Assembly (NCBI GenBank): GCA_021735655.1
Contig: JAIPGM010000001.1
Span: 160,001-224,000 of the forward strand
Origin: Candidatus Omnitrophota bacterium
GTDB lineage: Bacteria; Omnitrophota; Gorgyraeia; Duberdicusellales; 4484-171
Length of the DNA: 64,000 nucleotides
Reading direction: 5' to 3'
The notes below the pieces were generated by a model. It was not told where the DNA came from. It made no database searches and was given only the letters and a program-made list of their open reading frames with translations. Positions 64 to 48,747 of this stretch are shown here, piece by piece. How positions within the stretch are numbered: the stretch's first letter is position 1; each line of letters begins with the position of its first letter. Both the position numbers and the translations under genes were made by a program.

Positions 64-1035
64 GTGGCCAATCTTAAAGAAAGCTGGTATGTAGTAAATC
101 GAGAAAGTGGTGTCACCTATGTTTTAAGACGAGTCCAAGGCAAGACTCGCCTTAATCATTATTTGGCGATGTTGAAATATTTGGGTGTGCCGCGTGAAAA
201 AATATTTGTCCGAGATTTTAAAACTGCTTACCGAACTATTTATCAGAATAATTTAGCTGATTTAGCCGGCAAGCTCACCCAGTGTGTATTTAGTTTTAAT
301 CTCACTGAACGCTTGGAAGATCTTCAGGCAGTTTATCCGGCAGCAACCGTAAGGGAAGTTCAGGTTGATGGTTTTCATCATGCGGTTATTACCTTTAGCC
401 GAGATAACCAAATTCTTTTAATTGATCTTAGTGATGCCTACGGAAGTCAAATTGCTCAAGTTCTTGACTTTGTAGTTAGCCCTCTCGAACAAGGTGGCTT
501 AGCTATAGAAAGAGTTTTATTTTTAGGAGCCTGTGGAGCAGTAGCTGATAATATTGCTTTAAATGATGCAGTTATAATGCAGGGTTTAATTGATGATGAT
601 CCTCAGGCAGTTGGTTTTCCGGTTAACCAAGTTGACGCTGATCGACTTTTTAGCTATTTAAATTTAAGTTATGAAGATTTTAACGACATGATTCATACAG
701 TAGGCGCTCGGGGAGCGCATTCTGAAGGTTTATGTTGTCAGACCACTGCTAATCTTGCTGATTGGCAAGCTCGCGGAGCTGATTTTGTTGAAATGGAGCT
801 ATTGCCTATTATTGAAGTATTAAGAAATTACTGGCATGTTCAGTTGGAAGTAATTCTCCAAGTTACCGATCTTTTAGGCCGTGAGAAAGAATATCAATTG
901 GGTCAAGGGGTGCCAGCTGCCGCTGAAGCTAGGAGAGCAGCTCGTTTCCGAAAGGCGATTGCTTTATATTTAGTTGGTAATTTAAAGCCAAAAGTTACTG
1001 TAAATGCTAGTCGAAACTTTAGCCTTGACGCTGTT
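64..1035 (+). other. Module 0: nucleoside phosphorylase / MTA-nucleosidase-like (PNP_UDP_1 fold) domain
   Basis: RVLFLGACGAV...NDAVI resembles the Gly-rich loop of the family. ADFVEMELLPIIEV resembles the conserved EME motif of MTA/SAH nucleosidases. Confidence 0.4.
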
Positions 1036-4000
1036 CCTTTGGATAACGGAAAAAGCGAAAAAACTAGTCCAATCGTGCGAGCTCCGCCTTTAGATAATGG
1101 CAAGCAAAGCAAATCTCACCCGGCAGTAATTAGCGAATATGAGGTTTCACGGTTTGTGGCTAAAATAGCTCAAACCCGTCGTCAGGAGATGAGGGTAAAT
1201 ATTCGCTCTAGCTTAGGCCTTGAGTCTTTTATTAGTTTAGTTAAGGGGGAGCGTCTTGAAGCCCTTAGAGAAAAAGTTATAAATTTACATCAATCCGGTG
1301 TTAGGAAGATAGTTTTGATGAACGCTACTGAATCTGGTGGTGGCGTTGCCGAGATGATGCATGATATTGTTTCAGTTATGTGCAGCGCTGGAATGGCTGC
1401 TGAGTGGGTTGTTATGGATGGCCACAGTGCTTTCTTTAATGTAACTGTGCATATTCATGAAGGACTTCAGTCGCCAGCCAAGGAAGATATTTCTTTAGAG
1501 GAAATAGCTTTGTTTGACGAAGCCAGTATCGGAAATTTTGAACGCCTTGAGCAGGATGGTTACTTTGATGGACTTGATTTATTTTTTGCCGAAGACCCTC
1601 AGATAGTCGGTCTAATACCATTGATCAGGGCTTTTTATCCAGAGGTTCATCTTGCTTGGCGTTGTCATATTGACACCTCTACTCCTAATCGTCAAATTGC
1701 CGAATTTGTTAGCGATATGGTTAGCGGCCGTCTTGATCCAGTACGGGATAAATTACTCTATGACTATCTTTTAAAGCGTTTAATGAGAGAGGGTATGATT
1801 GGAGCAGCAGTTGATTTTGAACAAATGATGCAGGCTAATTCCCTTTCGGTTAATCTTGCCCAAGTTGCGACTAGAAGATTGTTGGCCGATATAGCTATTT
1901 ATCACACCGAAGAATTTGCTTTAGGATTACATCTCCAAACTAAAGGCGTGCCAACCTTTATTATGCCTCCGGCAATTAACCCTTTTAGTTATAAAAATAT
2001 TCCCCTAGCTGATAATTTTATTCGGGCAACTATGGTTAAATATGGTTTAGATCCCAATAAATTTACGGTTGTTGAAATATCACGTTTCGATCCTTTTAAG
2101 GGGCCGCTGGAGGCCATTCAGGCTTTTGTGCGTTTATTTTTGGATAATCCGGGATTGCAGAATGATTTACAATTTGTTTATGCCGGAAATATGGCTGACG
2201 ATAACCCTAAGGGAAAACGCGATTTTGAAAAGATCGATGCCTATTCTCGCTATCTTAGAAAGAAATTTCCTAAACTTAGGAAAGCCTTGTTTTTGCTCGG
2301 TCTTGGGAATAAACCCGGGACAGTAGCCTTAAATTGGGCCCAGAGACGCAGCTTGCGTGTTGGTGGTCAGTTTGCTCGGCCATTTTCTCGGAAAGAGATA
2401 GGTCGACTCAACGGTGTTGAGATAAATGCTCTTGAGGTTAATGCTTTACAGCAACAACTTGAGATGGAAAAAAGAGACGGTAGGTTAGTTATTTCTTTAC
2501 CGCGTAAAATAGCAATACAGCCTTCATCAAAAGAAGGTTTTGGCTTAGTGGCGGCTGAGGCTACCGGAAAAGGTACTCTGGTTATCGCTTCTTTGATCGG
2601 TGGCCTTAAAGCGCAATTAAAGGATTTGCTTGCGCAAGCTTCTTGGTTGGGCATTAACTATACGCCGGAGGAAATTAGTCAATCTTTAGAGGTGTATGAC
2701 TCAATGGATTCTGATCAGCATAGAGGTGTTGTTTTCGATGTGGCTTATTTGGAAAGAATTAATTTATATCAACGGCTTAATCAACGAGAATTCGTTTTGG
2801 GTTTAGCTACCTCTCTGCGGGTGGCTTACGAACTGGCTCATAAAAATCCAGATGTCTATCGAGAGCTCGGTTTAGCTGCACGTTGCCAGACTTTAGATAA
2901 GTTTATTACTCTAGCTAATGTTGAGAACCGCTTAGCCGCCGCTTCCTTGATTGTTGATAATCAGCAGCCCTTGGATAATGGTAAGCCAGAAGTTCCGATG
3001 CCTTCTTCTTATTGGATCGATCATAGCCTTCTTCATGAAATTGATAATGTTTGGGCTAACTTGGATTGGATTAATCCCGGGCCAAGTTTAAGCATAGCTC
3101 GCCAGATTGAGAAAAATTTTAAGCCAGCACAAGAGCCAGGTTTTTTAAGAGTTAGCATAGATGCCTTTGGTCCGCTTAACGGATTTAAAAATCAAGTATT
3201 AGCTGAACATGAGCAGTATTTTGATTCCGAGGTTTATAAAGATTATCGAGCTGGCATAATTCATGCTATTGATAATCTTTGGCAACACGGCGGAAAGTAC
3301 GGTGCCTTATTTTTGATGGCTCAGCTTAGAGGACGAACCGTACGCTTTACTTATTGTTTGCTAGATCGCGGTGATGGTTTTATTAATGACGATTACAACC
3401 ATGTTCGTTTAGAAGAAGCCGTTCAGGCACATAGAACATTTAAACGAGCCGGCAAGAATGGTATGGGCCTTTATTATATGGCGATAAAGCCGGATTATTT
3501 TTCAATCACCGCGGTTAATTGCTACCGGGCTGTTGCCACAACTCAAGCTCACTATTGGGAAACTGGCTACACTAAAGAATGGCCGTTTTGCCCGCAACAA
3601 ACTCCGGTTAACAAGGGGGTGCGGGTGATTTCGGTAAAGGATGTAGCTTTAGGCCTTTTGCCATTTTCGAATATGCAGCCGTTAGATAATGGCCGTCGAA
3701 CTGATGAAGAACGCCTGGATTTTATCGGATTTTTAGTTGAGTCATATTTAGAGGCTTTATTTACTTTCCGGAGGTTAAGAGCAAATAACAGCGAAGTAGC
3801 CGAGATGTATCTGCCAGCAATTTCCGAAACTGCCGTTAGAAAGAAACGAGCCAAATGGGTAGTTACAGCTGTTGAGGTTGCCCGTGAGGCATTTCAGGTT
3901 ATGGCTCGAGCTGATTTTCGACATTCATCCGGCTTAACCATTCGTTCAATCTTTGATTCAATTTTGGCTTCTGGCGGTCGCAACCAAGCAGCTAATGATC

Positions 4001-7000
4001 TAGGAGTCGATCGCGCTAGCCTTACTCGCTGGATGCATAGCTTACCTAATGATTTATTAGGTGGGTTAGATCCAGAATTAGCAGTCTTCAAACAAAGAAT
4101 CCTTGATTTATTTGATGAAAACAATACTCGACCCCTAGACAACGGTAAAGAAAATATAGATTTATTAGCGGTTACAGCAGTTAAAAGAGAGGACACCTCA
4201 CCGTGGCTGGCGGGCCCTCTCTCTGCTGTAGCCCCTATATATATAGGTAAACAGCAGGGGCCGCTAGATAACGGCCGAGCGCCTTTGGATAATGGCCAGC
4301 CAGCTAACTTTTGGAAAGTTTTGCATTCTGGTATATACGTACTTCCGATATATTACACTCGACTTTTCGATACAGCTAAAGACGCAGGAATTGGAAAATA
4401 TACTTATGTAGTGCCGTTTGTTCGTGATCATGTATTGTCTTTAGGCCATCAAGCGATACTTTTCTTACCGTTTTCTTTGCAGTTACCTTGGTCGCAATCT
4501 CCTTATGATGCGGCTGATTGGCGTTATTTTAATACTGATTATATTGATTGGGGGCTTATCCCTGAGGCTCAACCTTTTCTAGGTAAGTTCGATTATTACG
4601 GTCATTCACAGCGTAGCGTTGATTTTCGATCAATCCGGCCACGTGAATTATTAATCGGAAAGGCCGCCTTTCTTAATCTCAGAGACAATCGAGAAAAACA
4701 ATACCGCCAGCGCTGGGAAGATTTTCAAAGGTTTGTTAACAATCAGCGAAGTAGAGGGCCGGAGTGGGATTTAACCCATCTTGGTCATTACCGGGCCTTC
4801 AATGATGTCTTGGGTAATGATTTTGGTTTATGGGTTCATGAAGGGATGTATTGCCCTAGGCAGGATACCCATCCAGATGTTATCAAGTACAACGTTGCTG
4901 AGCAAAATAAAAATATGCAATATTCAGATTTAATTCAGTTCTATCAATACCAGCAATGGATTGCTTTCGGCCAGGCTCGCGATATGCTTGAAGGTTTGCG
5001 CAATATTGGTGTCTTTTATCTTTTAGATAATCCTTTCTTTCATGCTAAGGGTGGTATTAATTTTTGGACCCAAAACATCATTTCAAGAGATAGGCATTAT
5101 GAATTTTTTGATCGTTCACCCGGTGTACCCGGAATCGGTAGTGACCCTGAACAATTCTGGACATCTTTGGTTCCTTGGAATTGGCCTAGATTAAGAGAGT
5201 TGGACTATGAACCTTTCTTAAACCCTTATCATTATTATTTAGGTGATTTGGGCGCTCAGGGAGTTCGGGCTGATGCTATTCATTTTCTTTTTCCTTGGAT
5301 TCATTGGGAACGCGGTCCTTATGCTGCTAATTTTCAGAGTTGGGAGTCCCCGGGTCATGATTTACTTTGGAGATTAGACAACGTTTTTAATTCTTATGGA
5401 GCTTTCAGGCTTGGCGAGTTACTTGGCCCGGGTTTTGAAAGTATTCAGAGAATGGGCTTTGATAATTATCACTGGCATTTCTATCGGATGTGGAAATGGG
5501 GTGGCGGACCTGATTTAAATCCGGGTTGGAACGCAAAAGCTTTAGAGTTACATGATGGGCCGCGGGTTTGTGTTGACCATGAACACGGGTTCTATCCTTA
5601 TGCCGGACACGCTTATTTACGGCATCGTTTGGAGGGCCCGGGCGGTCTAAAAGAATTAAATAGTCGTTTCCTTTTAGGCAGTTCGGATATAGCTATGGTT
5701 TATGCCGGAGATGAAGTAGCCGACAACTGGTGGATAAATAACCCTAATCTGCCTGAGTGGATGATGGATCGTAATTGGGCCACTCGAATGCCAATGCAGG
5801 GCGATCAGGATTTTGATCTTTCAGTAGCCTTGTCCATGCTTGAGCATCGCCGTTGGATTGGCCAGCGTCTAATTGAGCGGACGCCTTTGGATAATGGTAA
5901 GCAAGAGTTTAATCATCTTAGCTTGGTTGAATCTAACGGTGAACAAAAGTTATACTCAGCCAGTAGTTTAGTAATATCTCAAAGGGGAGTCTATTTAAGC
6001 CCGACATCAACCGGGCCGAAAGAGGTAATTTCTCAGATTCAACTTAGCCCAAGCGGAATTAAAGTTTCCGGGGAGTTAACTAGCCAGGAGCCAAAATCCC
6101 GGCCAATAGATTATCGTCACTCTTATGAAATTAACTTTTATTTTGAAAAATTAGCTAAAGCCTATGGCCGCGGTTTGTTTGTCGGTATCAATGACGTACA
6201 GCTTTGGATTCGTCTTAGCCAGGCTTTGGGTGATTTTTTATGGGGCGTTTTGCGTCTTGAAACAGGGATTTTTGATATTCCCGATAGAAAATTACGACGC
6301 CTGGTGATTCAGGAAGCGCTTTATCATGAGGTGATGACTAGTGCCTTGGGGCTTTCAGTGGCTAATCGCGGCTTGCGTGAGTTTTTTGCAACCATTTTAA
6401 GTGTCAGCCATTTTTGCTATCTTAGCGAGATAGCTAAAGATCAGGATAAGCTTAATTATCGTTTAGGGATTCTGCAAGCTCTTGATCGGGGTTTAATCCA
6501 GATGAGTGATTCACTGGCTGGGCTATACCGTCAAATTGCCGAGTCTGGCAGTTTACCTGATCCAGCAACCTTGGTAAAAGCAGTTATAACCCATATTAAT
6601 GAAGAAGAACGATACCATAGTGACCGGCGTTCATTTAGGGATTATGTTCGAACTAAGTCCGAGAATTTTAGCGGACGCTTTACAGTCGGAAATCTTACCC
6701 AGGCGGTATTAAATGATTCAGCTTTACAGTTAGAGTTACAGGCAGAGTGGACAAATTTCTTGGGATTTTTAGCTAATTCACAAACCGTAGCCCGTGCCTG
6801 GCAGCCGAAAATTAAATTTATAAGAGGTCCGCGGGGCATAAAGGTTATTAATCCCCAAGGCGTACCGGATCAAGGCGGCTATCAATTCCAGCTGCAAAGT
6901 TTCCGGGCAATTTTTGACTGTTTGGGTTTGCCTAATCCGCTTAGTGAGCCAGCTGCCCTAAATAGATATTTAGGTTTTCTGCCTGAGCCTCCTGAGTATG

Positions 7001-10000
7001 ACTCCCAAGCCGTAAATTTACCGGAGTTAAACATCAGTCAAATTTTACCCGGAGTAGCTGTTGTTTATCCGGATAGTTTGGAAGCTAATCAATTAGCGGT
7101 AAGGCGAGCTTTGTATGAATTGATGAATTTTCGGGTTTGGAAGTTAGCCGTTGAAATACGTGGCGCCTTAGGTACAGAAGATGCTTTGTTTTTTGATCAG
7201 CATTGTCAGGTACATTCCTTTGTTGATGTAGCCCAAGGGTGGATGTTAGATTTAAATCCCCAAAGCCCGATAGTCTATGATGATGTTTTACCCGGCGGCC
7301 AAGCTTACGAAGCGCCGGAGCAGCCGGATTTAGCCGAACATGAGCGATTGCATCAAAAGGCTCAGGCAGTTTTTTCAAAAGTTTGGGCAATCACTATGAA
7401 CAGGTTCTTGCGGGATCAGCGGATGTTTGGCGGTGAAGCCGTGGGTTTAGTTGGCTTTACTACAACCGTACCAATATTATATCGTTACATACAGCAATGT
7501 AAGCATTCTGAGCCGGAATACTCACTACAGCGACCTTTGAATAATGGCCTAGGCATACTTCAATATTTACAATCTTTACGTCGTAGCCAGGAAACCGAGG
7601 CTGCTAGAAGGGTTAGTCTAGACCAAGGCTTTGGGCAATTAAAAAGTTTATTAGTTGAAAAATTACAGTCGATTGATTCAACCACTTTAAGCATTGCAAA
7701 TCTTGATCAGGCTTTGAATGAAGATAGCCAGGCGATATTTTTAACCTTAGAGCAATTAAGAGAGGCACGCTTTCAGGCTGAGAGCTTTCGTAATGGGCAG
7801 GTAAGTATGTGTGATCTTGCTAGCCTAGCTTTGGCCGCTGCCAGCGAAGAAGTTTTTGGCCAGAGACACTTAGTTAAAATAGTTGTTGGCTATTATCGGG
7901 TTGATGAGCAGCTATATAAAAAACATTATTGGGTTGTGATTGATGAAACATTGTTGATTGATATAACTTATGGTCAGTTTGATCCGGACCATCTCAATCG
8001 TATTTTAGTTGCTACAGTAGATGATTACTTGAGATTAAAATTAGAATATGGTACAGAGTTAGAGCCGCTTGATAATGGAAAACAAACTCAAGTTCAGCCT
8101 ACTTGTTTAGAGGCTAGGTGGTGGAATAATTATTATCCCGGGGTTATCGAAGGAACTGGAATAAGGCCGACTGCCCGCTCACTTAGCTTTGAGCAGATCG
8201 AAGAAGTGGTTTGTCTATTACTTCTCGATCAAGCCGGCCAGGAATTGGTAGCTAAAATAATAAATAGAGAACTGCCCGATGTATATCCTTCGGTTCGAAG
8301 AACCGCTCTTAAAGCTATGGTCAGGTTCGATCATTACGAACTTTTTGGCCCGAAGATAATTACTTGTTTGCAGGATGTAGTCAGAGATGGAGCTGAGATG
8401 TATCAGCCTTTTGCTCTTTATGCTTTGGCTCAGACCCCGGCTTTTAATGGCCCGGTTGCCAATAGATTTGCCGAGGAAGCACTTAAGGGGACCCTTAAAC
8501 CAAGCCCAAGAAAGCCTACCGCAGCCGAAAAAACTGCCTTACAGGAAGGGTTAGAGCCAAATACTCAAGCGATTAGATTTAAATCCCGGCTTGCTTCAGT
8601 TGAATATTTAAAAGGAGTTTTAGCTCAACGTCAAGGTTGGGCTCGGGTTTGCCTCGGAACAGTACCACATTTTAGTCGGGTTAGCAATCGCGCTTTAATC
8701 AATAAATTTGCTGCTCAGGTATTAGCAGCTGATAAAAAGCTTTCTTCTAGTTCAGCTCAGCGACGCCAGAAAGATAAGTCAGAATTTTGGGGTCTTGAGC
8801 AAGCTGAGTTTATTCATCCAGCTACTGGCCATGAAGCTTTGGTTGAGCTGGCCAATGATCCGGAGTTATCATCTAGTGATGAAAGTCCTTTGGTTGATCA
8901 AATACTACATCAGATGGAGGAATTAGGTTATGTGCCGATATTGCGACCCAGTAAATTTCAGCTTACTGAGCCAGCTCAAGGTCAGGAAGCTGAAATTGAT
9001 CGCGAGGCGCTTTGGACCAAGGATGCTGTTTTGATGATTTCTACTAAATTCGGAATAGTTCCGGTTTCTTCAGCATTAGCCAATCTTAAGGGCGGTGAGT
9101 TCGTCAGTGGCTATGGTAAGCGCGGCAGCTTTATGATTATTCCGGCAGCCGCTCTAAATTCAAAACAGCAGCTATCTGATATAATTCCCGAGGTTCCGAT
9201 TCATGTATTTCCTTCGGGATTTTTGGTGATCAATGATCAGGGCGTAATTCGTTTAAGAGGAACCTCGCATATTGACACTTCTTTAGGAGCAATTCCGATT
9301 ATGGCCCGGCCAGAATCAGGCCAGTTGATGTTAATCGATCCTTTGTTGCATCAGGTTGCCCGTACACACCCTCGCTATCGCGATCACTATCAATCAGTAG
9401 TTCAAGAAGATGGAGTGCGTTTTATTGATGTGCCCGAGCCTGAACGTCATTTAAATCCTGCTAATTTTGGTATTCTTCCCGGTGGAGAAATATTTATGCC
9501 TTATGCGCCGCGGACTAAACAAGTTTTAATTGAGGCTGGGGTTAATGAGCAGTATATAATAATGTTACCAAGTGAATTTAATAAGTATTTACCAACCCTT
9601 CATGTTTTGGCGGGGAGTATTGGCTGTTTAGTGGCCCAAGCTTTTCATCCGGTTGAGAAGCGAGAGCCGCTCGACAATGGCCATGAAAAAGAAAAACGGC
9701 AAACTAGATCCCGAGCAATAGATATATCAACCAAAGGTGCTGAAGATTTATTGTTTACTGAGCTTCAAACAGGGAGTTTAGTTAGTTTAGTGGTTGATGG
9801 CCTTGAGTATTGGCTTAGCCTTGACCAGGGCGATGAAGTTTGGTTTGATTTATATCGGCCTAAAGATGATATCATTGGCTATATTTATTTTCGAAATGAC
9901 GCAATGCCAGCCAGAAAAATAGCCAATTTTGGCGGCCCGAGCATTGTTCCGGCTTACCGGGGCAGGCATTTGTCGCGAGTTCTTTATTTTGTTTATTTTC

Positions 10001-13000
10001 GTTATCTTTGGCGCAATAATTATATCCCTGAAGAAGACTGTTTGACTATCGATGATCGATTGGCCCTAAAGCTTTATCATGAAGCTAAAAAGTTTTATTA
10101 CGATCAAGACCATACCTTTACTCCGTTTCAGATTATTCCCCGAGCCGAAAAGACTAAAGCTGCAAAACCTTTAGATAATGGCCACGATATGGTTCAAAAA
10201 CAATTATTTGAGTTAATTAAGCGTAAGTCAGATTCGATTAAAACTTTCTTAGAGCCGTTTGAAGCTTGCCTTGCTTACAATGGAGTGTTAGCTTTGCTGA
10301 TTCGAGGAAGGCCTGACTTGAGCGTTAAATTTTTGCTTAAGAAGATTGGCTCGGCTGAGCATTGGTTTTTACTGGCTGAAACTGTTTTAGGAAATCATCA
10401 GTTTGTGGTTGATATTTCGCCGCAAGGAAAGATGTTTACCGATATTGAGGTGCTGGTTGTAGATTGTGCTGAAGCCGGAAAAATAAATTATCTATATGAA
10501 GATTATACTGTAGTTAGCGATCAAGAAACCGAAAACTTATTGCGAGCCTTAGCAAGACAAAAAGGGATGAATGAGTTCTTGCATTTAGTTCATCAATTAC
10601 CAGAAGAAAAATGGATAGGTAGGTTACCGGATAGTGACCAGTCGATGCCACTTGATAATGGTAAATTAATCAATGAAGGTTCAGAAAGTTCTTTTTCCGA
10701 TATAACTAATTCGATGCGGGTGACTTTTGTTATGCCGATGTACAATGAACAGCAACGCTTACTTCCCAAGACTTCTGATAATCCCTATGGTGAAGATGCT
10801 TTAAGGGTTAAAGTAAGTCAATTTAGAGAACTCGAGCAAGAAAATCCTAATTTCCAGTGGCGGCTAATTGCCGTAGATGACGGAACTCCCGGGTTTGCTT
10901 CAGCCAAATGCCTTGAGCAGATTTTGGCTGAGATTGATGCCCAGAATCGGGAATTTAATATCTATTCTAAAGTTTTCGTAGTGGTGATAACTGAACAAGA
11001 AAAGAAACTCCTAGGCAGCCGAAAGGGTGGAGCGGTTTTGCGTGGCTTTCAAGAGGCCCTAAGCCACGGTTGGGCTGATTATATCGGGATTACTGATACT
11101 GATATTTCCAGTAATGTTAACCAAACTAAAGATTTGATTTTGGCTCTTCGCAAAGGTGCTGGAGTAGCCATTGGTTCACGCCGCCAAAGCGGGGCCGAAG
11201 CTCGCGGCATACCGCTTTTAGGGAGAGTTAGCACAGTTATTTATAATTGGTGCATTCGTTTGATTTTGTGGCCGCTTTTTTCAATTCGTGATACCCAGCG
11301 CGGTTTTAAACTTTTTCAAAAAGAAGTAATTGTCAGAATATTACCCTATGCTCGCGATCACCATCTTTCTTTTGATACTGAACTGTTACTTTTGTCGCGT
11401 TTAGCCGGATACCAAATAGCTGAGGTGCCGATTGTCTGGATTGATTCAGCTGAGGCAACTACTTTGGTTATGTCTAAAGATGCTCCAGCGATGCTCTGGC
11501 GAGTGATTAAACAAGCCCGCCATATTTTTAATAATCCTTTTCGCGGCCAAAAGCCGCTCGATAACGGCCGAAAAATAAATCTATCAGTTAGAATGCTCAG
11601 AAAAGCTAGATTAATTACTGTTCATGTTGATGCTGGAGATTGTCCAGCCGCCTTAGCTAGCGCGATTGATAAATTAGTTTCGGGTTTAGGGCAAATCCAA
11701 GTAAGCCGTAGTAATATTGTCTTAAACACCGCCCATCAGAATAGCCCTATGGATATTGTTTCGTCGGTAGGCTCTCTCTCAACTGAACAGATAACAACTT
11801 TATTTCCTGAAGCTGTTTTTCTGATTGCTGGCGGCAATGTGTTTAAATGCTTAAGAAATCTAGTTGAGTCATTGGCTGTCGGCTCAGTGAACAAGCGAAC
11901 TGTTAGGATTTTTGTTCTTTACGATTATACCTATGGCCAAGGCTCTAATTATAGCCCTGAGCAATTAGCCGGTGAATATTATGATTATTTTAGCGATATG
12001 CTTTCAGTCTATAGTGATAGGTTTAATCTAGCTGTATTTTATCTTGCTCAGAATCAATTCGAGCAGGAAATTTACGGTAAAAATTTATCCGGGCCCAATT
12101 TATCTTTAGCAATTATTGAAAAAGAAGCTTTAGCTAGTCAAGTACCTTTAGATAATGGGCGTAGTCTTGGGGAGTTAACTGCCGAAGGCTACAACTTAAA
12201 GTTTCTAGCCCGCAGTTCTGATTTAAGAATGACTGCCCATTGCCGAAGAGATGTAAGTTTTAATAGTTATCTTTATGATTATCGCCTGGATCCAGAGCAT
12301 ACTTATCGTCAAGCCCAATTAGTTCCTTTAGTTGCTCGATCGGTTAAGGAAAATGCTTTTAGAAAGTCTTCTGATTGGCAATACTTGCCGCAGCATTTGA
12401 AAGATTTATACGATTCCGGTAAAGTTTTGATGATTGCTTCCCGAGCCCAAGCTAAAGCTAAGCCTAGCCGGTATTCAGCCTTAGTAATTTCTGGCAGGAC
12501 TGAGGCTTTTAGCGGCCGGATGGGTATTTTACTCTATGACAATCGGCCGATCATTGTTTCAATTTTAGATAAGCCTTTTTTCATTGAAGCTAAAGGAATC
12601 GGGGTTGCTCAAGGAGGTTTTAGCTCAGTGCATCGGCGCTCGGGCCATAGATATGAAGTTACCGGGGCTCAGCGTTGGCAAGCTTCCTTAAAAGAATTTA
12701 CCAGTTTAGAGCTTGAGCGAAAAATCAGCCGATTTTTTGGAACAGCTGATACCCCACGCGCCTTAGCGGCGATAGTCTATAAATATCCTCAAATGGATCA
12801 GTTAATTAGTGATAGCCTAACTAGCCAGGCTGAGCGAAGAGAAGCTAAAGAGCAGTTAGGCGATAGTTTAGGGATAATGTTGCGGCTTTCGCCTTCGAGC
12901 CGCCGCTTTGCTTATAATTTAGAACAGCGTCACATTAGAATGCTTGGTGAAGCTTCAGCCCGCCTGCTTTGTTCTTATCTTCCCCGAGTGCATACTTCGC

Positions 13001-22000: not shown

Positions 22001-25000
22001 AAGTGGTCGATGATAAGTTTATAGTATTTGATGATTGGTTAATTGAAAGAATTCCTGGAGGATTGTTAGAGGGGTTGCGGAGAAGCATTTTATTTTTGCC
22101 TTATTTAGGAAGTATTTTAAGAAACAAGACATCGTCAATAAATAAACCCCTGGATAATGGCAAGAAATATAATTATCGGCAAGTCCTAGAGATGGTTGAC
22201 TGTTTTGATAGTGCAAGGTTAGAGGCTCACTTATTTAGAGCTCTTGGCAGAGTTGAGACTGAAGCCGTATCTATAGCTGGTGATATTATTAGGGCGGCTA
22301 GAAAATTTGAACGGATAACTAAAGCAGTAAAATCTCTTTATAGGAAAACTTACGGCAAGCTACCTAATTTTACTCTTGCTTTCGATCCTTCCGGTCAAGG
22401 TATGTATGGGGCGTATCAGGAGGATGATACAGCCGGATTTTTTGATCATATTGGCGTAGCTCCAGAAGATGTGCTGCTTGAGGTAGGCAGCGGCGATGGA
22501 AGCATTTCGGATTTCATGGCCCATATGTTTGGGATTAAGGCAACTGGGATTGAGGTTTGGGAGCCATATTATCATTACGCAGTTTTCTTAAGAGATGAAG
22601 CAGTAAGAAGAAGATTCATTCCAGAAGGTAAAGTAGATTTTTTAAATAATAATTTAGTAGATGTTGATTTTTCAAAGTATTCTTTAGTGTACTACGCTGC
22701 TCTTGGCACAAGAAGAAAAAGTGAGCTGGCTGCTAGATTGCTTGGGGTAAGAGAAAAATCCAGGATATTAATTCGGGGTTCACCTGATGAGTTAGTGGAA
22801 GGGATTATCGCATCACATCCTGATTTTAGCTTAAGGAAGCTTGAGATAGAAGTTAATGAAAACCTTACTGGAATTAAGGCAAGGGTTTATACTCGAGAGA
22901 CAATTACCAGTTACCAGCCGGTTCTCGACGTTCCTCTAGATAATGGCCGAAAAAATAACCCTCAGATGGTCAGAGCGCGCTTAGCCGCATTTGAAAAATC
23001 AATCGAGGGCATCGTGCCTAGGGCAGATCCGCTTTATGACCATTTAATTCGTTTTTATCAATATCCTTTGAATAATTTGGGTGAACCTGACGAAGAGACC
23101 TATGTAAGGAATAATACCAAGGAGCAGGAGCGGGAGCTTCTTAGATTCTGGGCCGGCCATTTCGGCCTTCCTAAAAATTACGGCGGTCATGTGACTATCG
23201 GAATCGGTCAGGCTGAATATTATGCCATGTACGTGGCTAGCAATCGATTTCCCAAGGCTATATTTTATATTTCTAATCAGGTCGATAGCCTTCTTTATGA
23301 TACTTTACAGGTGTTGGGCATTGATCAAGGAAGAATAAAGTTAATTAGGTCTTTAGAGAATGGCGAGATCGACTATGGTGATTTAAAGAGAAAGATTAGG
23401 GAGAATTCATCATGGCCGGCGGTGGTCTGCTTGACTGCTGGCAGATTCCTGGGGGCGGTTGATGATTTAGGAAAAGTGGAAGGAATTTTAGGGAGCCTGG
23501 GCCTAAAGCATAAACATATTCATTGCAGCATGTCACCGTTAAGTATAGGCCAGTCGTTTTTGGAAGATGCGGCAAAGATAGATTTTCAACATGGCTTAGA
23601 TAGCATGAGTCTACCGTTGTATCATTTTGTAAGGTGTCCGATGCCAGGAGTCATCGTTCTTACCAGAAGGAAATACCTTCAGAACATTGCTTGTAGTCAA
23701 AAAGCAGCTGAGTATGTTAACTCTAACGACACCACTAATTCTGGATCACGTAGTGGTCATGCTCCGCTTTATCTTTGGTTTGCTACAAAAGTTATTGGGA
23801 CTAAAGGATTTAAGGCTCAGGCTGAGCGGGCCAGGGAAGTTTGTGTTTCTATTAAAGCTCTATTTGACCGTTACGGTTATCCTTGCCGGTTCACCGCGCA
23901 AAAAAATACAATAATCTTTGAGCCACCATTTTATGAGTTGCGTCAAAAATGGGGCTTATTATCACACGGGCAATGGTCCTGTTTTGAGATTGTACCTTAT
24001 TTGACCCCGGTTGAGATAGCCGAATTTGTAAGTGATCTTTTAGGTGATCATTCTCAAGCGGTAGCCGCCCCGGTAGAAACCGTATTTCCGGAACGGATTG
24101 TCTATGAACCGTCTCCGGAAGTCTTAGATGTTTTGGATCAATTAGAAGCAAGGATCCAAATTTTGATGGAAAGATTTTTAGGATTTCCGGCAAATATCGC
24201 CGGCAATGAGACATCTTTTGCTGCCTTGAGCAGCTTGTTTAAATACACCTTGAGAAAAAAGGATGTGGAAGGTTTTCGACACGAAGCCTTGAAATTTTTT
24301 ACTGATCTTTACGGTTTAAGGTACGAAGATTTTTACTGCGGCATAACTGCTGGAGGAACCTGGGGAAATCGGGTTGGCCTATTAGTTGGCCGGGAAAATT
24401 TTCCCGGCGGGATACTTTATTACAGTCAGGATTCGCACTACTCGATTGATAAAGTGGCCAGGAGCCTTAACATGGAAGTAAGAAAGGTCGCCTCTTTGTC
24501 TAACGGCCAAATTGATTATGATGAATTAGCCGAAGCCATAGAGGAAAATCGTGGCCGCCCGGTAATTGTAAATCTTAACATCGGCACAACTATGAAAGGC
24601 GCTATCGATAATCCCCAAAGAGTTATTGAAATATTAAGAGAACAGGATGTTACTGATTACTATATCCATTGTGATGCCGCGCTTTTTGGTATGATTTTAC
24701 CGTTTCTCGAGGCTGCGCCAAAAATTGATCTGGCTAACGGCGTCCATAGTATTGCCATATCCGGACATAAATTTCTCGGCCTACCGATGCCTTCGGGCAT
24801 ATTCATGGTTCGGAAAAATTGTGCTAGGGATAGATTGATAACTATTTCGGATCGATTATTGACTGCCCAAACTGGCCATGTCATTTTGTATTTTTGGCAG
24901 GCTGTTGCTAGCCGAGGGTATGAGGGTTGCAGAGAAGAAGCTATGGCTTGTGTGGATAATGCCCAATATCTTTATTACAGATTACAGGAAAGGGGATTGC

Positions 25001-28000
25001 CTTCGGAGGTAAACCCTTTTTCCAATATAACAATGTTTTCCCGGCCATCGGGTAGCCTAATTGACACTTGGCAGTTAGCGCCTTGCGGGGACCGCGTCCA
25101 CGTAGTGGCCATGCAGCATGTTACCAGAGATAAGATTGATGCTTTTGTCCAAGAGTTAACTAGGGATATGCAGCAAGGGCAGATAGAACTAGCTAGTTCT
25201 ATGCAGCCTCTTGATAATGGTAGACGGCGCAAAGCATCGCTAGTGCCAGAGGTAGGCCTTGATGAATTAGTTGAAAAACATTTAGGAAACTTGAAGTTGA
25301 TATCTTCTGAGTATGGAAAAAGCGTAGGCATGTTATCTACTATTTTAAGACGACCAGACAATGAGAGCCTTCAACAAAGAGCAGAGGAGTTGAGGAAGAT
25401 TGGTCCTGGCCGTCTGGCCTTAGCAGCTGACTTAGGCGAATTCGGAGTAGATAGTTTGAAAATTGGTCAGAAGTATGGCGTTGGCCGAAGAACAGCGGCT
25501 AGTTGGCTTGTTAATAATGGATTTGGCGATAGGGTTAATAGCGCTAGATATAGTCGAAGTAGAACATTAAGACGTCAAAAAATAGCTCAGGAATATGAGC
25601 CGATTGCTCGCTTATTAGATGGTGAAGGCAATCTTTTACAGACATTTTATACCCATATTTCTTGGAAAGAGGTATCTGCTTATCCTTTCGCTGTTTTAGA
25701 TGAATTAGAAATCCAAGCTACCGAAGTTTTAAGTTATGGTGGTAAGCAATGGGGTCAGTTTAAGGGGCATGCTGGCCATAGAGCTCGGATAACATTGGAG
25801 TGGGGCTATCCAATAGAAGTTGCTATGTCTAGCAAAAGAGGAGTTGATCAAGGTAGCTATAGAGCCATGCAGCTTAGGACCTATCAGTCAACTCTTTTTG
25901 ATAGAGAGGGGGAACTCTTAGATACTGCTTTTTTCGTTTTTGGTTACGATGAAGATTTATGTCGGGGAACAACAAAAGTTGTTAACTATCAATTAACCAA
26001 GGCTGGAAGAATTAGTATTTTTGGTGATGAACAAATACAGCTAATAAAACATAAACAAGCCTGGGCTAATTTAGTTGCAGTGGATGGAAAGGTGGTCAGG
26101 GCTACCATTCTTGATAGAGAGGGCGGGAATGAGGTTATTACTTATAATTTTTCTCGAGTGTATGATGAAAACAACCGAGTAATTTACACTTTTACTGGAG
26201 GTTTAGAGTTTAAGCAAAGCAGTGTGCCGCCTGCGTTGTTGAAATCTTTAGCTAGAGGAAGAATTGAAGGTATTTACCTAAAAGGTGGTCGTGGCAACTT
26301 AACTATTGGCGGCAGAACTTGGGTTGTTTTAAGTGACTATAAAAATTATCCATGTAGGGCTTATATTGAAGAAGGGCTTGTGGTCAGAGTAGAGGTTTTA
26401 GGTGAAGAAGGAGAGGCTGTTTTTACCAAGCATTCTCACCGCCTTTATGATAGAGAAGATAACTTTGTCGAAGTATTTTATGATTCTATTTCACCAGAGC
26501 GACTTAACCAGGTTGGTTTGTGTCGTAGCAGTCCACTTATTGTGACTCCTTCAGGAGAGTTATGCTTATCTGGAAATCGTTATACTTTTGAAAATGAAGG
26601 CGGCTCTAAGGCTATTGTTTGGATTGAACCCGGAGTTAAGTTCACCAGAAATAGAAAGCCGGATGGTAAAGCAGTTAGAATTGATTTTTATGATCAATAT
26701 ATGCATTATAAGCATACCCGTTATGCAGTCAGAATCTATGAAGATGAAGGAGTTTTAATTGATACTTTTTTTGGTCCAGGATATGCTGAGAAGCTAAAGA
26801 TTTTTGGTGATGTAATTGGCTTTGCTCAACTCGATACGTTAGGTTCTCTTAATATTGGCTACACAACCCATACCTTTACTAAATATGGTGACCCTCGACA
26901 TTTTGTTAGATTTAGTCTACACCAGGCTCAAGTTCTGGATGTAGATGTTCTTGGCCATGACTATTGTCATATCGATAGAGTTGGCTTTGACGCTTGGCCT
27001 GATATGGCTATCGATCACTTTGAAATGGCCCGAATTGTTGATGAGCAGGATCAGCTATTACACACTTTTTGGTACGGTGTTTATTCAGAACGGATTCCCA
27101 ATAGAGGTAGAGCTAGAATTTTAGGGGCGACTTTTACTGCCGGAGGTCACCTGCGACTTGGTAACGAAGATGTTTATCATGATGCGAACTTTCCCGAAGC
27201 TAGAGTAAATGTTACTTATATTGACGGAGAAGTAAGTGAGATATTAATTTATCAGGATGCTCAAGGCAACTCAGTAAATTATCATTATACTAAAAAGCAG
27301 ATAGATAATTATAAGCGCAGAGTGCAATATTATAATCTGCGCGGTCATGTATTCGAGCATGCTTTAAGAGTTGCCTTACCTTTTTTAAGCGACTGCCCTT
27401 TTGATTATCAAAAGCGCATTGGTGGTGAAGTTGATGGGTGGGTTGATGGTGAAGCTGAACCAAAGCCAGCTGATTCCAGATCACTTAAACGTCCAGATTT
27501 TACTAGTCCTTTTAGCTGGGCAATGAGTGAAGGGGTATTGTGCTATATTGATGCTAAATTCAATCTTAGAATTAAGTTTTTAATAGAATATCTAGAGGCA
27601 ATTAAAGAGACTTTAAGAACTGATTATTTTACTGATTGTGATGCCCCAGTTGAAACACATTTTGTAGGAAGAGTTATATTTGAGATAGTTTATTTAGGCA
27701 GAGTAAGTGAAGCTAATGTAGAGGCAAAGTTAGCTGGTCATCAGAGAAATTTTTCAGCTACCAATTCTGAGATGCTCACCTTGAAACCAGTTAGCTTTCT
27801 TGATGAGTACGGAGATAGGCTTAAGACCGCTGGTCAGGATACTTTAGTAAGGTTTCTGAGACATCTGAGAGTTTTTCATTATAAGCCAGGTCGCAAGAAA
27901 GCCTTAGATAGCTATTTAGCCCAATTAGAACAGGATAAAATTCCCGAGATAGCCGATGAGCAGACTAATCTTTTTTCAAGGCCGCTGGATAATGGCCGAG

Positions 28001-31000
28001 AAAGATTATTGGTTAGTAGCGGTAATAGTCATTTAAAAAGTTTTCGTGAGGCGAAAGGTTTATTAGCAAAATTAAAATGTACAGACATTTTTGGGGTTGT
28101 CATGGGTTATCGCGCTGCCTTAGCTGATAGAGATAATTATCAGAGAGTATTTGCTCGTGATTCTGTTTGGATGGGGTTAGCCGAAATGCTTTCCGGCTGT
28201 AAAGGTAGTTTAGCTTTAACATTAAGCGTATTAAAACATCATCAATGTCGGTACGGACAGAGACGCGGGGCTATTCCGAGTAACATTTCAAGGTATCATC
28301 GGGTAAGTTATGGGACAACTAGCCCAAGAATTGATCCAACCCTTCTTTATATTGTTAGTTCTGGCCAATATTATCGGTCCAGACCAGCCTATTTTCAAAA
28401 ACAGTTTCTCGTTGAAAATTTATCGCCGCTACAAAAAGCTATAGCATATTTAGAAAGACAATGGGTTATGGATAACGGTTTATTGTTTATTCCGATTGCC
28501 GGAGATTGGGCTGATGAATATTTTCAACAAGGCCTTGTTTTGTATGATGAAGTTTTATGGTATATGGCACTTTCAGAGTATGCCTACCTTTTAGCTGAAG
28601 ATAATAATTCTAATTCAGAAGTTTATCAAGCTAAGGCTGCTTGGGTAAAGAATATAGTCAGATCCAAATTTTGGATAAATAAAAATCCCGGTCAAGGCAA
28701 TTTGGGGCATTTCCGTCATTTTTTCAATCAATTACAAAGCCCGAATCAGGCAGCGACATTTGGCTGTCCCTATGATAGCTTTGATGCTTTTGGTAATATT
28801 TTGGCAATTCTTTCCGGCGTGGCTACAGAGGAGCAAACTGCTCAGATAATTAAATATATTGATGTAATTTCAGAAAATAATCAGCCATTACTGGTGCCGG
28901 CACATTATCCGGCAGAAGAAGTTGAACATTTTGTTCACACAGGTGCTCCGTATCGGTATCAATTTAAGAATAATCCCGGGTGTTATCATAATGCTGGTTT
29001 ATGGTCATGGTATACAGGTTTATATGTTGCGGCATTAGTGAAAGCCGGCCGATTAGACCGGGCGGCTAAATTTTTAGAAGGGGTACAGCTAGCCAATGAA
29101 GCTAAGGACTCAAATGGCCGGGGGTATCATGAGTACCATACTAATATTCCCGGTCAATTGAGTAGGCCGGGTGGAGTTAGCAATTTAGGTGTCAGCGCTG
29201 CTGGTTATATAATAGCTCACCAAGCATTTTTTAAAAATAAGATTGTTTTTGGTCAGAATCATCCTTTAGACAACGGCCGTCAGATGCCTGATTATTTTTC
29301 TCCGGTTGGAGACGTCAATGTAACTCTTAATAGTTCTTCAGAAAAAGCCCCCCTTGATAACGGAAGAAATTATTCCAGTTCGCCAATATTTCAAGAGACA
29401 ACCTTTACCTATTGGTTAAGAGTGAGTTTATATTTATTAAGATTTTTGCTTAGTGCACCTTATTATTTTATTATTACTTTAGTTGTATCAAGAATGATGA
29501 AAGGAAAAAACATTTTATTTGTATCTTACCGTATTAATGAATTTGCTTTAGATGGAGTATCTTTAGAAATAAAAGAGTGGCGAAATCTTTTATATCGATT
29601 GGGCGCACATATTTTTCTATTTTCTGGTCATAGCAAAATTGTTCAGGATGGAAGTATCACCGGTCAGGCTCCGGATTGCATTGAGAGTGATTTTCTTGCT
29701 GAACAGGCAACAAAAATAAGAGAGAAGATTGAAAGAGAGGGAAAGCTAGATGCTGAAGATTTTGAATTAATTCATAGAGCAAAAGAGATAATTAAACGCA
29801 ATCTGCGTAAGTGTATCTTGGAAAATAATATTCACTACATTGTTTCGGAAAATGTATTTTGTCTACCGGGAAACCTCGCTCTTGCCGAGGCACTTATAGA
29901 ACTTGCCGAAGAGTTTCCTCGGTTAGGTTTTATTTCTCATAACCATGATTTTTGGTGGGAACGATCCCGCTATTCAAAACATATTCGCACTGATTGTGCT
30001 AGTTACTTAGATAACCTTCATAATCGAATCCGTCGCCAAACAGTCGTTGTTATAAATCAAGGCCAGTTGAGAAATATTTCAGATCATCTCGATGCTGGTT
30101 TGCACAAAGTATTTATTGTTCCGAACGTAAGAGATTTTTCCCGAAAGCCAAAAGTAGATCATTCGTGCGTAGCTAGGCTTAAGACTTATCTAAGACAGAG
30201 GCACGGGATTACTGAAGATTGCCATGTATTTTTAGCACCGGTAAGGCCCGTTTATCGAAAGAATTTAGAACATGCTATTGATGGTTTGGCTAAAGTTCAG
30301 GAAGAAATGGGGGAACCTTTGCTATTTGTTGTAAGCCATAGCGCCCAAGATTCTCAACCAGGTTACGTTGACCAACTAAGAGCTCGGGCTGAAAGCCAGG
30401 GTCTTAAATTTGTTTATCTGGGTGAAGAAGTGCTTTCCGGTCAGTTTAGCTTAGAGACGATATATGCTTTTTGTGATATGGTCATTGTTACTTCTACCTG
30501 GGAGGGTTGGGGTAATGCCACGCTTGAAGCATTTTATTACCAGAGACCAGTTATTGTCTGGCCGTACCAGGCTTACCAAACCGAGATAAAGCCTGTAGGG
30601 CTAAGTTGCTTAGAGGCGCCTGAATTTTCTTCTGAGGTCATTACTTCGATAATTACGGTTTTACGATTTACTTGGTTGAGAAAAAGAATTGCTAGAGGGA
30701 ATTATTGGTTAGCTAAATTACATTTTTCTTACCGAAGGCTTACAAGAGTATTTTTTAAAGTATTTAATAATTTAGAATCTGCCGAAACCAAAACACAACA
30801 ATTTCCGCTTGATAATGGTAAAAAGGGTGAGGGTTCTAAACCAAAACAAAAATTATCTCCTTTCGAGAGATTTAAACAAGACATAGACGAGCTTCTTAGC
30901 AATCCCCAAATCAGGCAAGTAAGCGTAGACAGTATTCTTCAATTTTACGGCCCACGGCTGAAACGCGATGTTGTTGAGGCCCATCTTAAAAGTAAGGGTT

Positions 31001-32797: not shown

Positions 32798-33763
32798 ATG
32801 ACTGCTTATATTATCCGTCGCCTGCTTCTATTTATCCCATTACTTTTAATAATTACCTTTATCGGCTTTGCTTGTATTAATCTTGCTCCCGGTAATTACT
32901 TTGATAGCTTAAAGCAAAATCCCCAAGTATCCGAAGATACAATTAAGCAGTATGAAGCTAAATATCATTTAGACAAGAATGTTTTTATTCAGTATTATTA
33001 TTGGTTAGCTAATGTAGCTCGGCTTGACTTTGGATACTCTTTTACTTATAAGATACCGGTTTTTAAGCTCTTGAAGCTACGGATGTTTAATACAATCATT
33101 TTGTCGCTCTCGGTGCTTATTTTCAGTTGGTTAATTGCTATACCTTTGGGAATTTATTGTGCGGTTAATCAATATAAGTTTAGCGATAAGTTTTTTTCTT
33201 TTCTTTCATTCATCGGTCTTTCAATTCCTAATTTTTTCTTTGCTCTCTTACTTTTATATCTAGCTTCGGTAACTGGAATATTACCTTCAGGCGGAATGCA
33301 TTCCTTGGGTTATGAAAATCTAAGTCGCCTCGGAAAGATTTTTGATGTACTTAAACATTTAATTATTCCAACCTTAGTTATTGGTACGTCAAGTATTGCC
33401 GGACTGCAGCGTCTTATGCGGGGAAATATGCTCGAAGTCCTTAGAGCTCAGTATATTACAACAGCCAGAGCTAAAGGCTTGCCAGAGCGCAGAGTCATCT
33501 ATGTCCATGCAGTAAGAAATGCTATTAATCCGATGGTTACTATGTTTGGCGGAACTTTAGCCGGGCTTTTAAGCGGTGCAGCCTTAACCGAGATAATCTG
33601 CAGCTGGCCGGGGTTGGGTCAGTTGATGCTTGAAGCAGTAAGGAGCCAGGATTTATTTTTATTCGTTGGGGATCTGTTGATGATTAGTTTTCTTTTGATT
33701 ACTGGATATTTAATTGCCGATATATTATTAGCCTGGGTAGATCCGCGAATTCAGTATCAATAG
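32798..33763 (+). CDS. ABC peptide transporter permease (OppB/DppB-like)
   Basis: Polytopic membrane protein with the conserved permease region TTARAKGLPERRVIYVHAVRNAINP. Start codon abuts the SBP stop. Confidence 0.8.
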   Translation: MTAYIIRRLLLFIPLLLIITFIGFACINLAPGNYFDSLKQNPQVSEDTIKQYEAKYHLDKNVFIQYYYWLANVARLDFGYSFTYKIPVFKLLKLRMFNTIILSLSVLIFSWLIAIPLGIYCAVNQYKFSDKFFSFLSFIGLSIPNFFFALLLLYLASVTGILPSGGMHSLGYENLSRLGKIFDVLKHLIIPTLVIGTSSIAGLQRLMRGNMLEVLRAQYITTARAKGLPERRVIYVHAVRNAINPMVTMFGGTLAGLLSGAALTEIICSWPGLGQLMLEAVRSQDLFLFVGDLLMISFLLITGYLIADILLAWVDPRIQYQ

Positions 33764-33791
33764 AACGATAAGTTAAGATTGAACAATAAAG

Positions 33792-34886: not shown

Positions 34887-34901
34887 CTTTTTAATTTTAA
34901 T

Positions 34902-35867: not shown

Positions 35868-35873
35868 TAGACT

Positions 35874-48741: not shown

Positions 48742-48747
48742 AGTTAA

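Follow-up and report, generated by a model that had tools for sequence, protein, structure and literature searches.

What is one short peptide doing, over and over again, in a single bacterial reading frame of more than 10,000 codons? The question is raised by a 64,000-nucleotide (nt) stretch of the genome of a Candidatus Omnitrophota bacterium (assembly GCA_021735655.1, contig JAIPGM010000001.1, positions 160,001 to 224,000 of the forward strand; G+C content 38.6%), the whole of which is called here the window. It opens with a giant open reading frame (ORF) that occupies nt 1-31038 (+ strand, frame 0; stop codon at 31036-31038) and encodes at least 10,324 amino acids (aa), the number counted from the first listed start codon, a GTG at nt 64. 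The frame is open to nt 1, where it is clipped by the start of the window, and its N-terminal part lies outside. The encoded protein is punctuated by the pentapeptide PLDNG, most often followed by Lys or Arg, and PLDNG[K/R] reads as a delimiter peptide placed at module junctions and marking the C-terminal edge of modules. Such a junction delimiter is a new element within a recently recognised protein class.

Recurrence of PLDNG in the giant ORF

A six-frame search of the window revealed 29 exact copies of PLDNG, all on the + strand in frame 0, between nt 1036 and 30805. None was present in the remaining 10,649 codons of the window, despite the several multi-domain fusion ORFs found there. The only variants with one mismatch in the giant ORF were PLNNG (nt 7534) and PFDNG (nt 21082), so that the 31 copies counted in a preliminary description of this DNA were recovered as 29 exact ones plus these two; since the frame is not closed at nt 1, this number is a minimum. 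By chance, 0.01 copies of PLDNG would be expected from the amino acid composition, and never more than 2 arose in 2000 shuffles. At the DNA level, the degenerate pattern CCNYTNGAYAAYGG gave 30 matches, as compared to 0.05 in dinucleotide-preserving shuffles. The chance expectation for one-mismatch variants was about 0.7 (arithmetic from residue frequencies); because of this, of its two deviations and of the hydrophobic residues that follow, PLNNG-L is a questionable copy, which could be due to chance. PFDNG-R, with its basic follower and polar flanks, is probably a real one.

Conservation by position was 100% (P), 97% (L), 97% (D), 100% (N), 100% (G) and 84% (K/R), with nothing conserved beyond. 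The residue after the Gly was Arg in 17 copies, Lys in 9, His in 2, and Gln, Leu and Gly in one each; the preliminary description had placed a basic residue in every copy, which holds for Lys/Arg in 26 of the 31 only. Its list of codons for that residue (AAA, AAG, CGA, CGT, CGC, CGG and AGA, with AGG unused) stood. A weak preference for Gln or Asn was seen two to three residues before the motif Pro (Q.P..NG, 8 occurrences against 0.06 expected), and the Lys/Arg tended weakly to be followed by one more basic or polar residue. Segments between motifs ranged from 2 to 920 aa; the preliminary description had set the upper limit too low, at ~790 aa. Five pairs of copies stood in tandem, with spacers of 2-38 residues. 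All 31 DNG tripeptides of the giant protein belonged to the motif. Outside it, Asn-Gly was mildly depleted (19 against 29.4 expected, P=0.027; window 64-31035), whereas elsewhere in the window the ORFs showed no such depletion (30 against 33.2). The copies are as follows.

1036..1053, + strand, PLDNG-K, copy 1
1087..1104, + strand, PLDNG-K, copy 2, tandem, 12-aa spacer
2968..2985, + strand, PLDNG-K, copy 3
3679..3696, + strand, PLDNG-R, copy 4
4132..4149, + strand, PLDNG-K, copy 5
4261..4278, + strand, PLDNG-R, copy 6
4282..4299, + strand, PLDNG-Q, copy 7, tandem, 2-aa spacer
5884..5901, + strand, PLDNG-K, copy 8
7534..7551, + strand, PLNNG-L variant, doubtful
8065..8082, + strand, PLDNG-K
9667..9684, + strand, PLDNG-H
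10168..10185, + strand, PLDNG-H
10648..10665, + strand, PLDNG-K
11554..11571, + strand, PLDNG-R
12145..12162, + strand, PLDNG-R
14332..14349, + strand, PLDNG-R
15643..15660, + strand, PLDNG-R
15727..15744, + strand, PLDNG-G, tandem, 23-aa spacer
16450..16467, + strand, PLDNG-R
17344..17361, + strand, PLDNG-R
17869..17886, + strand, PLDNG-R
20224..20241, + strand, PLDNG-R
21082..21099, + strand, PFDNG-R variant, probably real
21808..21825, + strand, PLDNG-R
22147..22164, + strand, PLDNG-K
22933..22950, + strand, PLDNG-R
25207..25224, + strand, PLDNG-R, ~11 aa past the end of the histidine decarboxylase homology
27982..27999, + strand, PLDNG-R
29263..29280, + strand, PLDNG-R, 2-8 alignment columns past the C-termini of free-standing GH100 homologues
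29350..29367, + strand, PLDNG-R, tandem, 24-aa spacer
30805..30822, + strand, PLDNG-K, last copy, at the predicted C-terminus of a mannosylglucosylglycerate-synthase-like module and followed by a 72-aa tail

Conservation of the peptide and not of the DNA

The codons of the 31 copies were tabulated by residue, and the synonymous codon use that had been reported for the motif was fully reproduced. Pro was encoded by CCT (16), CCG (8), CCC (6) and CCA (1), Asp by GAT (26) and GAC (4), Asn by AAT (21) and AAC (10), and Gly by GGC (16), GGT (9), GGA (4) and GGG (2); all six Leu codons were in use. Mild codon preferences were seen in the motif, with GGC in 16 of 31 copies compared to 30% gene-wide and CCA in 1 of 31 compared to 22%. 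Twenty-eight distinct 15-nt versions were found among the 31 copies, and the exact copies showed a mean pairwise nucleotide identity of 0.784, the value obtained when synonymous codons were drawn according to the gene's own codon usage being 0.789±0.011. The near-identity between copies that a duplication would have left was thus absent. Flanking DNA, 30 bases on each side, was 27% identical, which is the random level, and the ten flanking residues on each side were 6.8% identical against 6.1% expected; that flanking residues are not conserved had been stated in the preliminary description. Also, no pair of motif-bounded modules was paralogous in a blastp comparison among segments (E 1e-3), which indicates that the motif is not carried by a duplicated unit. 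Because synonymous sites are at codon-usage equilibrium, flanks are random and paralogous modules are missing, selection acts on the motif peptide and not on a DNA repeat. The earlier statement that the copies are no DNA repeat, artefact or recent duplication is in agreement with these values.

Position of the motif at module junctions

All 31 copies lay outside the intervals assigned by Pfam, NCBIfam or PDB homology, which make up 21% of the chain; 31 sites placed at random would miss every one of these intervals with a probability of ~6e-4. Upstream of the motif, the assigned enzymes end close by. In an alignment with free-standing GH100 homologues, their natural C-termini lie 2-8 columns before PLDNG; homology to the solved histidine decarboxylase ends ~11 residues upstream of the motif, and the alkaline invertase and mannosylglucosylglycerate (MGG)-synthase model homologies end at the motif, within a couple of residues. 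Downstream, the next enzyme starts 15-47 residues past the motif (TreT ~24, GH77 ~20, GT2 ~26, PglC ~25 and MGG synthase ~47). The residues from -10 to +14 around the motif had a polar fraction of 0.67 compared to 0.536, a value that 0 of 2000 random site sets matched, and hydropathy was back to baseline beyond these limits. In an AlphaFold2 (AF2) model of the GH100 junction, the 49 residues that include two copies of the motif appeared as coil, with a predicted local distance difference test score (pLDDT) below 50, bordered by the final helix of GH100 and by the helix with which the next module opens; this model was of low confidence (mean pLDDT 52.8, six-sequence alignment) and gives weak support to a coil linker. 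The grammar of the junctions is: C-terminus of the upstream enzyme, 0-11 residues, PLDNG[K/R], a polar leader of ~10-45 residues, and the next enzyme.

The giant ORF encodes a chain of about 30 unrelated modules, essentially complete enzymes and membrane modules. About 11 enzyme families were identified, each present 1-2 times (Pfam, NCBIfam and PDB-homology scans), and about half of the chain was without a family match even at E<=1. The modules that could be assigned are given below; a methyltransferase-like stretch was also found.

505..897, + strand, module 0, phosphorylase-superfamily (PNP_UDP_1) domain (domain scan)
1216..2682, + strand, module 2, TreT-like GT4 trehalose synthase (domain/PDB homology)
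4384..5382, + strand, module 7, GH77 4-alpha-glucanotransferase (domain scans)
10960..11466, + strand, module 13, GT2, polyprenyl-phosphate hexose synthase-like (domain/PDB homology)
14425..15003, + strand, module 16, polyprenyl glycosylphosphotransferase (Bac_transf, PglC-like) including a membrane helix (domain scans, hydropathy)
15742..16449, + strand, module 18, integral membrane module of 236 aa, no family match, 3 or more hydrophobic helices (hydropathy, domain scan)
18817..19437, + strand, module 21, Glu/Leu/Phe/Val dehydrogenase domain (domain scans)
24163..25179, + strand, module 26, C-terminal half, pyridoxal phosphate (PLP)-dependent histidine decarboxylase (NCBIfam equivalog, 498 bits)
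27997..29262, + strand, module 28, GH100 alkaline/neutral invertase (domain scan, alignment, AF2)
29521..30612, + strand, module 30, GT4, MGG-synthase-like (domain scans)

Hydrophobic helices were confined to the phosphotransferase module 16 and the 236-aa module 18. The latter is set among soluble enzymes and adjoins the PglC-like phosphotransferase module; if the chain were left uncut, it would anchor the whole giant protein in the membrane.

Assignment to the giant proteins of Omnitrophota

Giant genes of Omnitrophota were first reported in 2023 by West-Roberts et al. (bioRxiv 10.1101/2023.11.21.568195), and a class 1 of 'multi-enzyme metabolic clusters' has been defined among the giant proteins (bioRxiv 10.64898/2026.06.07.730766). 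The giant ORF has the features of this class: one uninterrupted frame that reaches 10,000 aa or more, many Pfam families of which none is dominant by copy number, and an Omnitrophota host. On the last point, nine proteins encoded in its neighbourhood match exactly those of a metagenome-assembled genome at NCBI (MCF7907298.1-MCF7907315.1) that bears the name Candidatus Omnitrophica/Omnitrophota bacterium. As in other class 1 proteins of the same phylum, which exceed 10,000 aa, these families tile one chain with few membrane helices, the emphasis is on sugar metabolism (GT4, GT2, glucanotransferase, with radical S-adenosylmethionine (SAM) genes nearby), and the sequence is mostly unique, with distant relatives. 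We conclude that its product is a multi-enzyme giant protein, predicted to be translated as one chain. Neither of the two studies describes a junction motif, linker or cleavage site. West-Roberts et al. suspected that the giant proteins are cleaved, without cleavage points at hand, and found module-wise analysis blocked by the missing information about them (bioRxiv 10.1101/2023.11.21.568195). The visible part of the giant ORF showed neither of the domains, C39 and subtilisin, in which they saw signs of processing.

The sequence itself is supported by an independent Logan assembly of run SRR12088349, identical to the window across 21.7 kb (zero mismatches). The Logan contig SRR12088349_9023 (129,842 nt) has its end at window nt 4224, within the giant ORF and beside the tandem copies at 4261 and 4282, and the gene call on it is a truncated product of 8,937 aa. 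Both this product and the full giant protein were absent from the protein libraries searched, which indicates that giant ORFs of this kind are under-represented in protein databases. When the first half of the giant ORF was used as a query, only giant proteins were retrieved, namely 6 distant ones, several of them labelled Omnitrophota, with at most 38% identity over less than 10% of the query. The second half gave zero matches, candidate selection being probably swamped for long queries, and the GH100+GT4 region gave 5 matches, all limited to the GH100 part.

Distribution of the delimiter and a second one in distant relatives

A profile built from the 31 copies was searched against 1.84 billion representative proteins, with no match at E<=1e-3. 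Run on the giant protein as a positive control, it scored 455 bits, or ~15 bits per copy, and this together with the zero matches means that no protein in the library carries roughly four to five or more copies. DNA collections were probed with the double-motif pattern GATAAYGGNMRN{4,34}CCNYTNGAYAAYGGNMR, which demands two copies within 34 bases and has 2 matches in the window. It gave 29 single matches in genome contigs (185,579 species genomes) and 54 in Joint Genome Institute (JGI) metagenome contigs, all of them due to chance or to DNA tandem repeats, and no second punctuated ORF was found with it; the source genome is absent from both contig collections. Some of these matches are explained by a tandem repeat in the DNA that is short, codes for (V)EPLDNGRPYS(I/T)(L/Q)P and is unrelated to the giant-protein delimiter; it is present in a Bathyarchaeia metagenome-assembled genome (L011) and in two metagenome contigs (L035 and L083). 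In the literature, 'PLDNG' appeared in no relevant paper, and nothing relevant was found on an Omnitrophota polyprotein or on proteolytic processing of bacterial polyproteins.

Two of the distant giant relatives, P0003 (7,873 aa) and P0004 (7,830 aa), were without PLDNG and carried a delimiter of their own, R[SA]E[A/V/T/L/M/I/S]R, with 19 copies in P0003 and 17 in P0004. For RSE.R in this family, 14 occurrences contrast with an expectation of 0.17 (p 1.6e-22); three further R[FP]ExR variants (RFEVR and RPEMR types) were present. The grammar of R[SA]ExR is like that of PLDNG: the flanks vary, copies are spaced by 96-1,372 aa, and in tandem pairs the distance is 5 and 21 residues. The Pfam matches of the pair (GT2, DUF218, two HPr, ThiG and methyltransferase) each lay within one motif-bounded module, the HPr domains starting 3-8 residues past a motif. 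Whole modules have been replaced or lost between P0003 and P0004, with breakpoints at, or at most ~12 residues from, motif positions 769, 944, 6062, 6384, 6888 and 7142. The N-terminus of P0003 was hydrophobic and signal-peptide-like. No strict delimiter was found in P0001, P0002, P0005 or P0006, the last of which showed only Pro/Ala-rich linkers, so that delimiters are not universal in these proteins.

A possible processed polyprotein and its alternatives

How could such a delimiter work? The reading that we place first, while giving it a little less than an even chance, is that PLDNG[K/R] copies are the recognition sites of one site-specific endopeptidase that cuts the chain into enzymes, i.e. 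that the giant ORF encodes a bacterial polyprotein. It would be translated as one chain of about 30 unrelated enzyme and membrane modules; an endopeptidase acting in trans would recognise PLDNG[K/R] in the exposed linkers; cleavage at the junctions, at the Asn|Gly bond or alternatively at Gly|Lys/Arg, would free the individual enzymes, and tandem sites would release short spacer peptides. A strict hexapeptide in exposed linkers that otherwise drift freely argues for recognition by a trans-acting protein, and the footprint of conservation fits an endopeptidase S4-S2' span in size and shape, with P4-P2' being P-L-D-N|G-K/R. What a processed polyprotein should show, one consensus repeated wherever units that fold independently are joined, was found. 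We favour processing because of the placement next to natural C-termini, the lineage-specific consensus, the tandem spacer peptides and the presence of homo-oligomeric families. GH100 invertase and Glu/Leu dehydrogenases are hexamers and PLP decarboxylases are dimers; such homo-oligomeric enzymes are hard to reconcile with the tethering of >30 such units in one chain.

Viral polyproteins (potyviruses, with the NIa site E-x-x-Y-x-Q|G/S of tobacco etch virus, and picornaviruses, with the 3C site Q|G) offer close parallels: a long ORF of unrelated units, a junction consensus of 5-7 residues, unconserved linkers, a consensus that varies by lineage (here PLDNG[KR] versus R[SA]ExR) and short 'spacer' products between tandem sites. 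In contrast to them, the giant ORF is cellular, encodes metabolic enzymes, and has ~3x more junctions and no identified protease module. Bacterial multi-module giants that are cut between modules at short sites do exist, namely the multifunctional autoprocessing repeats-in-toxin (MARTX) and clostridial glucosylating toxins, but their cysteine protease domain is built in, cuts after Leu at loose sites and is activated by inositol hexakisphosphate in the host, whereas in the giant ORF no C80 domain was detected and the cargo is of a housekeeping type, not effectors. The cyclotide and seed-storage precursors processed by legumain resemble the motif in that an invariant Asn and then a Gly stand where repeated or variable units meet; an Asn at P1 and a small residue at P1', as a legumain (C13) substrate has them, were present in 31/31 and 31/31 copies, which speaks to sequence compatibility only. 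Legumain systems, however, are eukaryotic, vacuolar and yield small peptides, the four further conserved positions seen here are not required by legumain, and no C13 peptidase was detected in the 64-kb window. Finally, multi-core precursors of ribosomally synthesized and post-translationally modified peptides (RiPPs), such as the cyanobactin PatE (G(L/V)E(A/P)S ... AYDG), share with the giant ORF the short invariant recognition peptides that bracket hypervariable cassettes, and modifying enzymes nearby; RiPP cassettes have 6-8 residues as opposed to whole enzymes of 100-900 aa in the giant ORF, for which no leader peptide or RiPP recognition element was identified.

Several observations weigh against processing. 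First, a hunt for peptidase domains by Pfam (at E<=1 on the 16 'dark' modules), by NCBIfam and by sequence search of the PDB detected none, either in the 10,324 visible residues, of which ~5,100 'dark' ones were scanned at E<=1, or in the 20 ORFs that neighbour the giant one in the window. Regular expressions for catalytic motifs gave chance-level matches only, one HExxH in module 8 and one HG...AC in module 26. Likewise, for P0003 and P0004 there was no peptidase among precomputed Pfam hits or in a scan of P0003 (residues 1-3178 and 4556-7873). Second, not every domain boundary is marked: in the large modules (753, 780 and 920 aa) two or more domains occur with no motif between, so that the motif delimits protein-sized units, and the adjacent multi-domain radical SAM ORFs are fusions without any delimiter. 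Third, five consecutive near-invariant residues are stricter than many protease sites.

What else could hold the motif constant? An alternative that we regard as unlikely, yet the best of those that remain, is that the motif is read in trans without cleavage, either docking a common partner (scaffold, chaperone, or membrane or cytoskeletal anchor) or directing modification of the linker at Asn, Asp or Lys/Arg, with the tethered array staying intact. That the motif is strict and linear while its linkers are variable, polar and unstructured fits it equally, the failure to find a protease is in its favour, the membrane modules could anchor an intact array, and a dense set of modifying enzymes (radical SAM/SPASM, B12-binding radical SAM, methyltransferase and glycosyltransferases) lies directly downstream on the same strand. 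But no candidate reader or writer was identified, and the motif matches no known sequon, that of bacterial N-glycosylation being D/E-x-N-x-S/T. Docking or modification would also leave the homo-oligomeric enzymes tethered and the placement flush with the upstream C-terminus unexplained.

Somewhat more doubtful is a purely structural hinge, in which Pro would end the secondary structure and D-N-G-K/R would form a type I' beta-turn, insulating neighbouring folds with no partner involved. The motif does sit in linkers, and the xNGK turn is used in designed beta-hairpins, e.g. the ENGK of trpzip peptides. However, any flexible polar linker would serve this purpose, and near-invariance of five residues over 29 junctions would not be expected from it; the flanks are polar and lack the alternating hydrophobic pattern of hairpin strands, the R[SA]ExR of the other lineage is not a turn motif, and the neighbouring fused ORFs manage without such a hinge.

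Spontaneous chemistry at Asn-Gly, which had been put forward in the preliminary description, seems improbable to us. It could consist of deamidation to Asp/isoAsp acting as a clock or kink, or of Asn cyclisation that breaks the chain as in asparagine peptide lyases. The invariance of Asn and of Gly (31/31 each) agrees with it, as do the mild depletion of Asn-Gly elsewhere in the giant protein but not in the neighbouring ORFs, and the confinement of all DNG tripeptides to the motif. Asn-Gly is the fastest deamidating dipeptide, but formation of the succinimide via the backbone nitrogen gives Asp/isoAsp without breaking the chain, and scission at Asn without an enzyme is favoured by a context that prevents deamidation, as in Asn-Pro, or by a catalytic fold. 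The established outcome is thus deamidation and not scission; the known Asn-lyases (FlhB/YscU at N|PTH, the nodavirus coat protein and inteins) need a folded catalytic context, whereas the linker here is variable and predicted to be coil. Moreover, the chemistry would not explain the conservation of Pro, Leu, Asp and the basic residue, and the R[SA]ExR delimiter has no Asn. The cleavage idea of the preliminary description is reasonable as a proposal, and its chemical argument from Asn-Gly weak.

Very improbable, in our view, is a co-translational action, be it a ribosome pause, 2A-like skipping ('stop-carry on') or internal initiation after each motif. The motif has a superficial likeness to D-x-E-x-N-P-G|P, with which it shares D, N and G, and it is appended to the C-terminus of the upstream enzyme; the 2A consensus itself is not there, with no N-P-G and no Pro after the Gly, and with a Lys/Arg next that is a good nucleophile. 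We know of no case of 2A working on bacterial ribosomes. As for internal initiation, there was no excess of Shine-Dalgarno-like sequences past the motif (55 against 49.6±8.3), and the next Met came no sooner than it does from random positions (median 37 aa versus 49). A DNA-level origin (repeat, adapter, mobile-element scar, assembly artefact or by-product of composition), for which no support was found, the mild GGC and CCA preferences being the only oddities, has a negligible probability in view of the 28 distinct versions, the identity at synonymous expectation, the random flanks, the single frame and strand, the near absence of matches in shuffles (<=0.05) and the identical independent assembly; repeat, adapter, artefact and recent duplication are ruled out by these codon, flank, shuffle and second-assembly tests.

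Returning to the polyprotein, a more general proposal can be made, which we hold only as a possibility: some Omnitrophota giant genes would be true polyproteins, in which as many enzymes as an operon encodes are made in one chain and cut at lineage-specific delimiters (PLDNG[K/R], R[SA]ExR) by co-evolving site-specific proteases, and the delimiters would serve also as cassette boundaries for gain and loss of modules. Whatever its function, the delimiter makes the question of whether Omnitrophota giant proteins are cut a testable one, since either new termini or intact junction peptides are predicted for metaproteomics; it gives a rational way of splitting giant proteins for structure prediction and annotation, and a PLDNGK/R peptide is a possible bait for the reader or the protease. 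If cleavage were true, a bacterium would be producing about 30 metabolic enzymes by a polyprotein strategy, a mode of expression so far known essentially from viruses, and the pairs of site and enzyme, specific to each lineage, would be of possible biotechnological use. If the chain stays uncut, the motif would be a new short linear motif organising a tethered enzyme array of >1 megadalton.

Neighbouring genes

Only 40 nt past the stop codon of the giant ORF, a complete oligopeptide ATP-binding cassette (ABC) importer of the Opp/Dpp type is encoded at window 31079-36842 on the + strand (SBP_bac_5, two permeases and two ATPases). It is pure speculation, but if cleavage frees spacer peptides, the presence of a peptide importer beside the giant ORF may be no coincidence. 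Further downstream on the same strand, at 39073-58062, lies a dense set of fused radical SAM (rSAM) genes with overlapping stops and starts. Its ORFs contained neither PLDNG nor an enriched k-mer of their own. The following were identified in it.

39073-42540, + strand, 1,155-aa ABC-ATPase fusion
42524-44890, + strand, rSAM ORF
44887-48741, + strand, 1,284-aa ORF with three rSAM-SPASM units
48748-49566, + strand, methyltransferase
49592-50464, + strand, rSAM ORF
50468-52636, + strand, B12-binding rSAM ORF
52647-55805, + strand, B12-binding rSAM ORF with two rSAM domains

Two GT4 genes are also located within these limits, and the whole set looks like a peptide or glycan modification cluster. 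Nine of the proteins encoded next to the giant ORF in the window (within MCF7907298.1-MCF7907315.1) formed singleton clusters at 90% identity.

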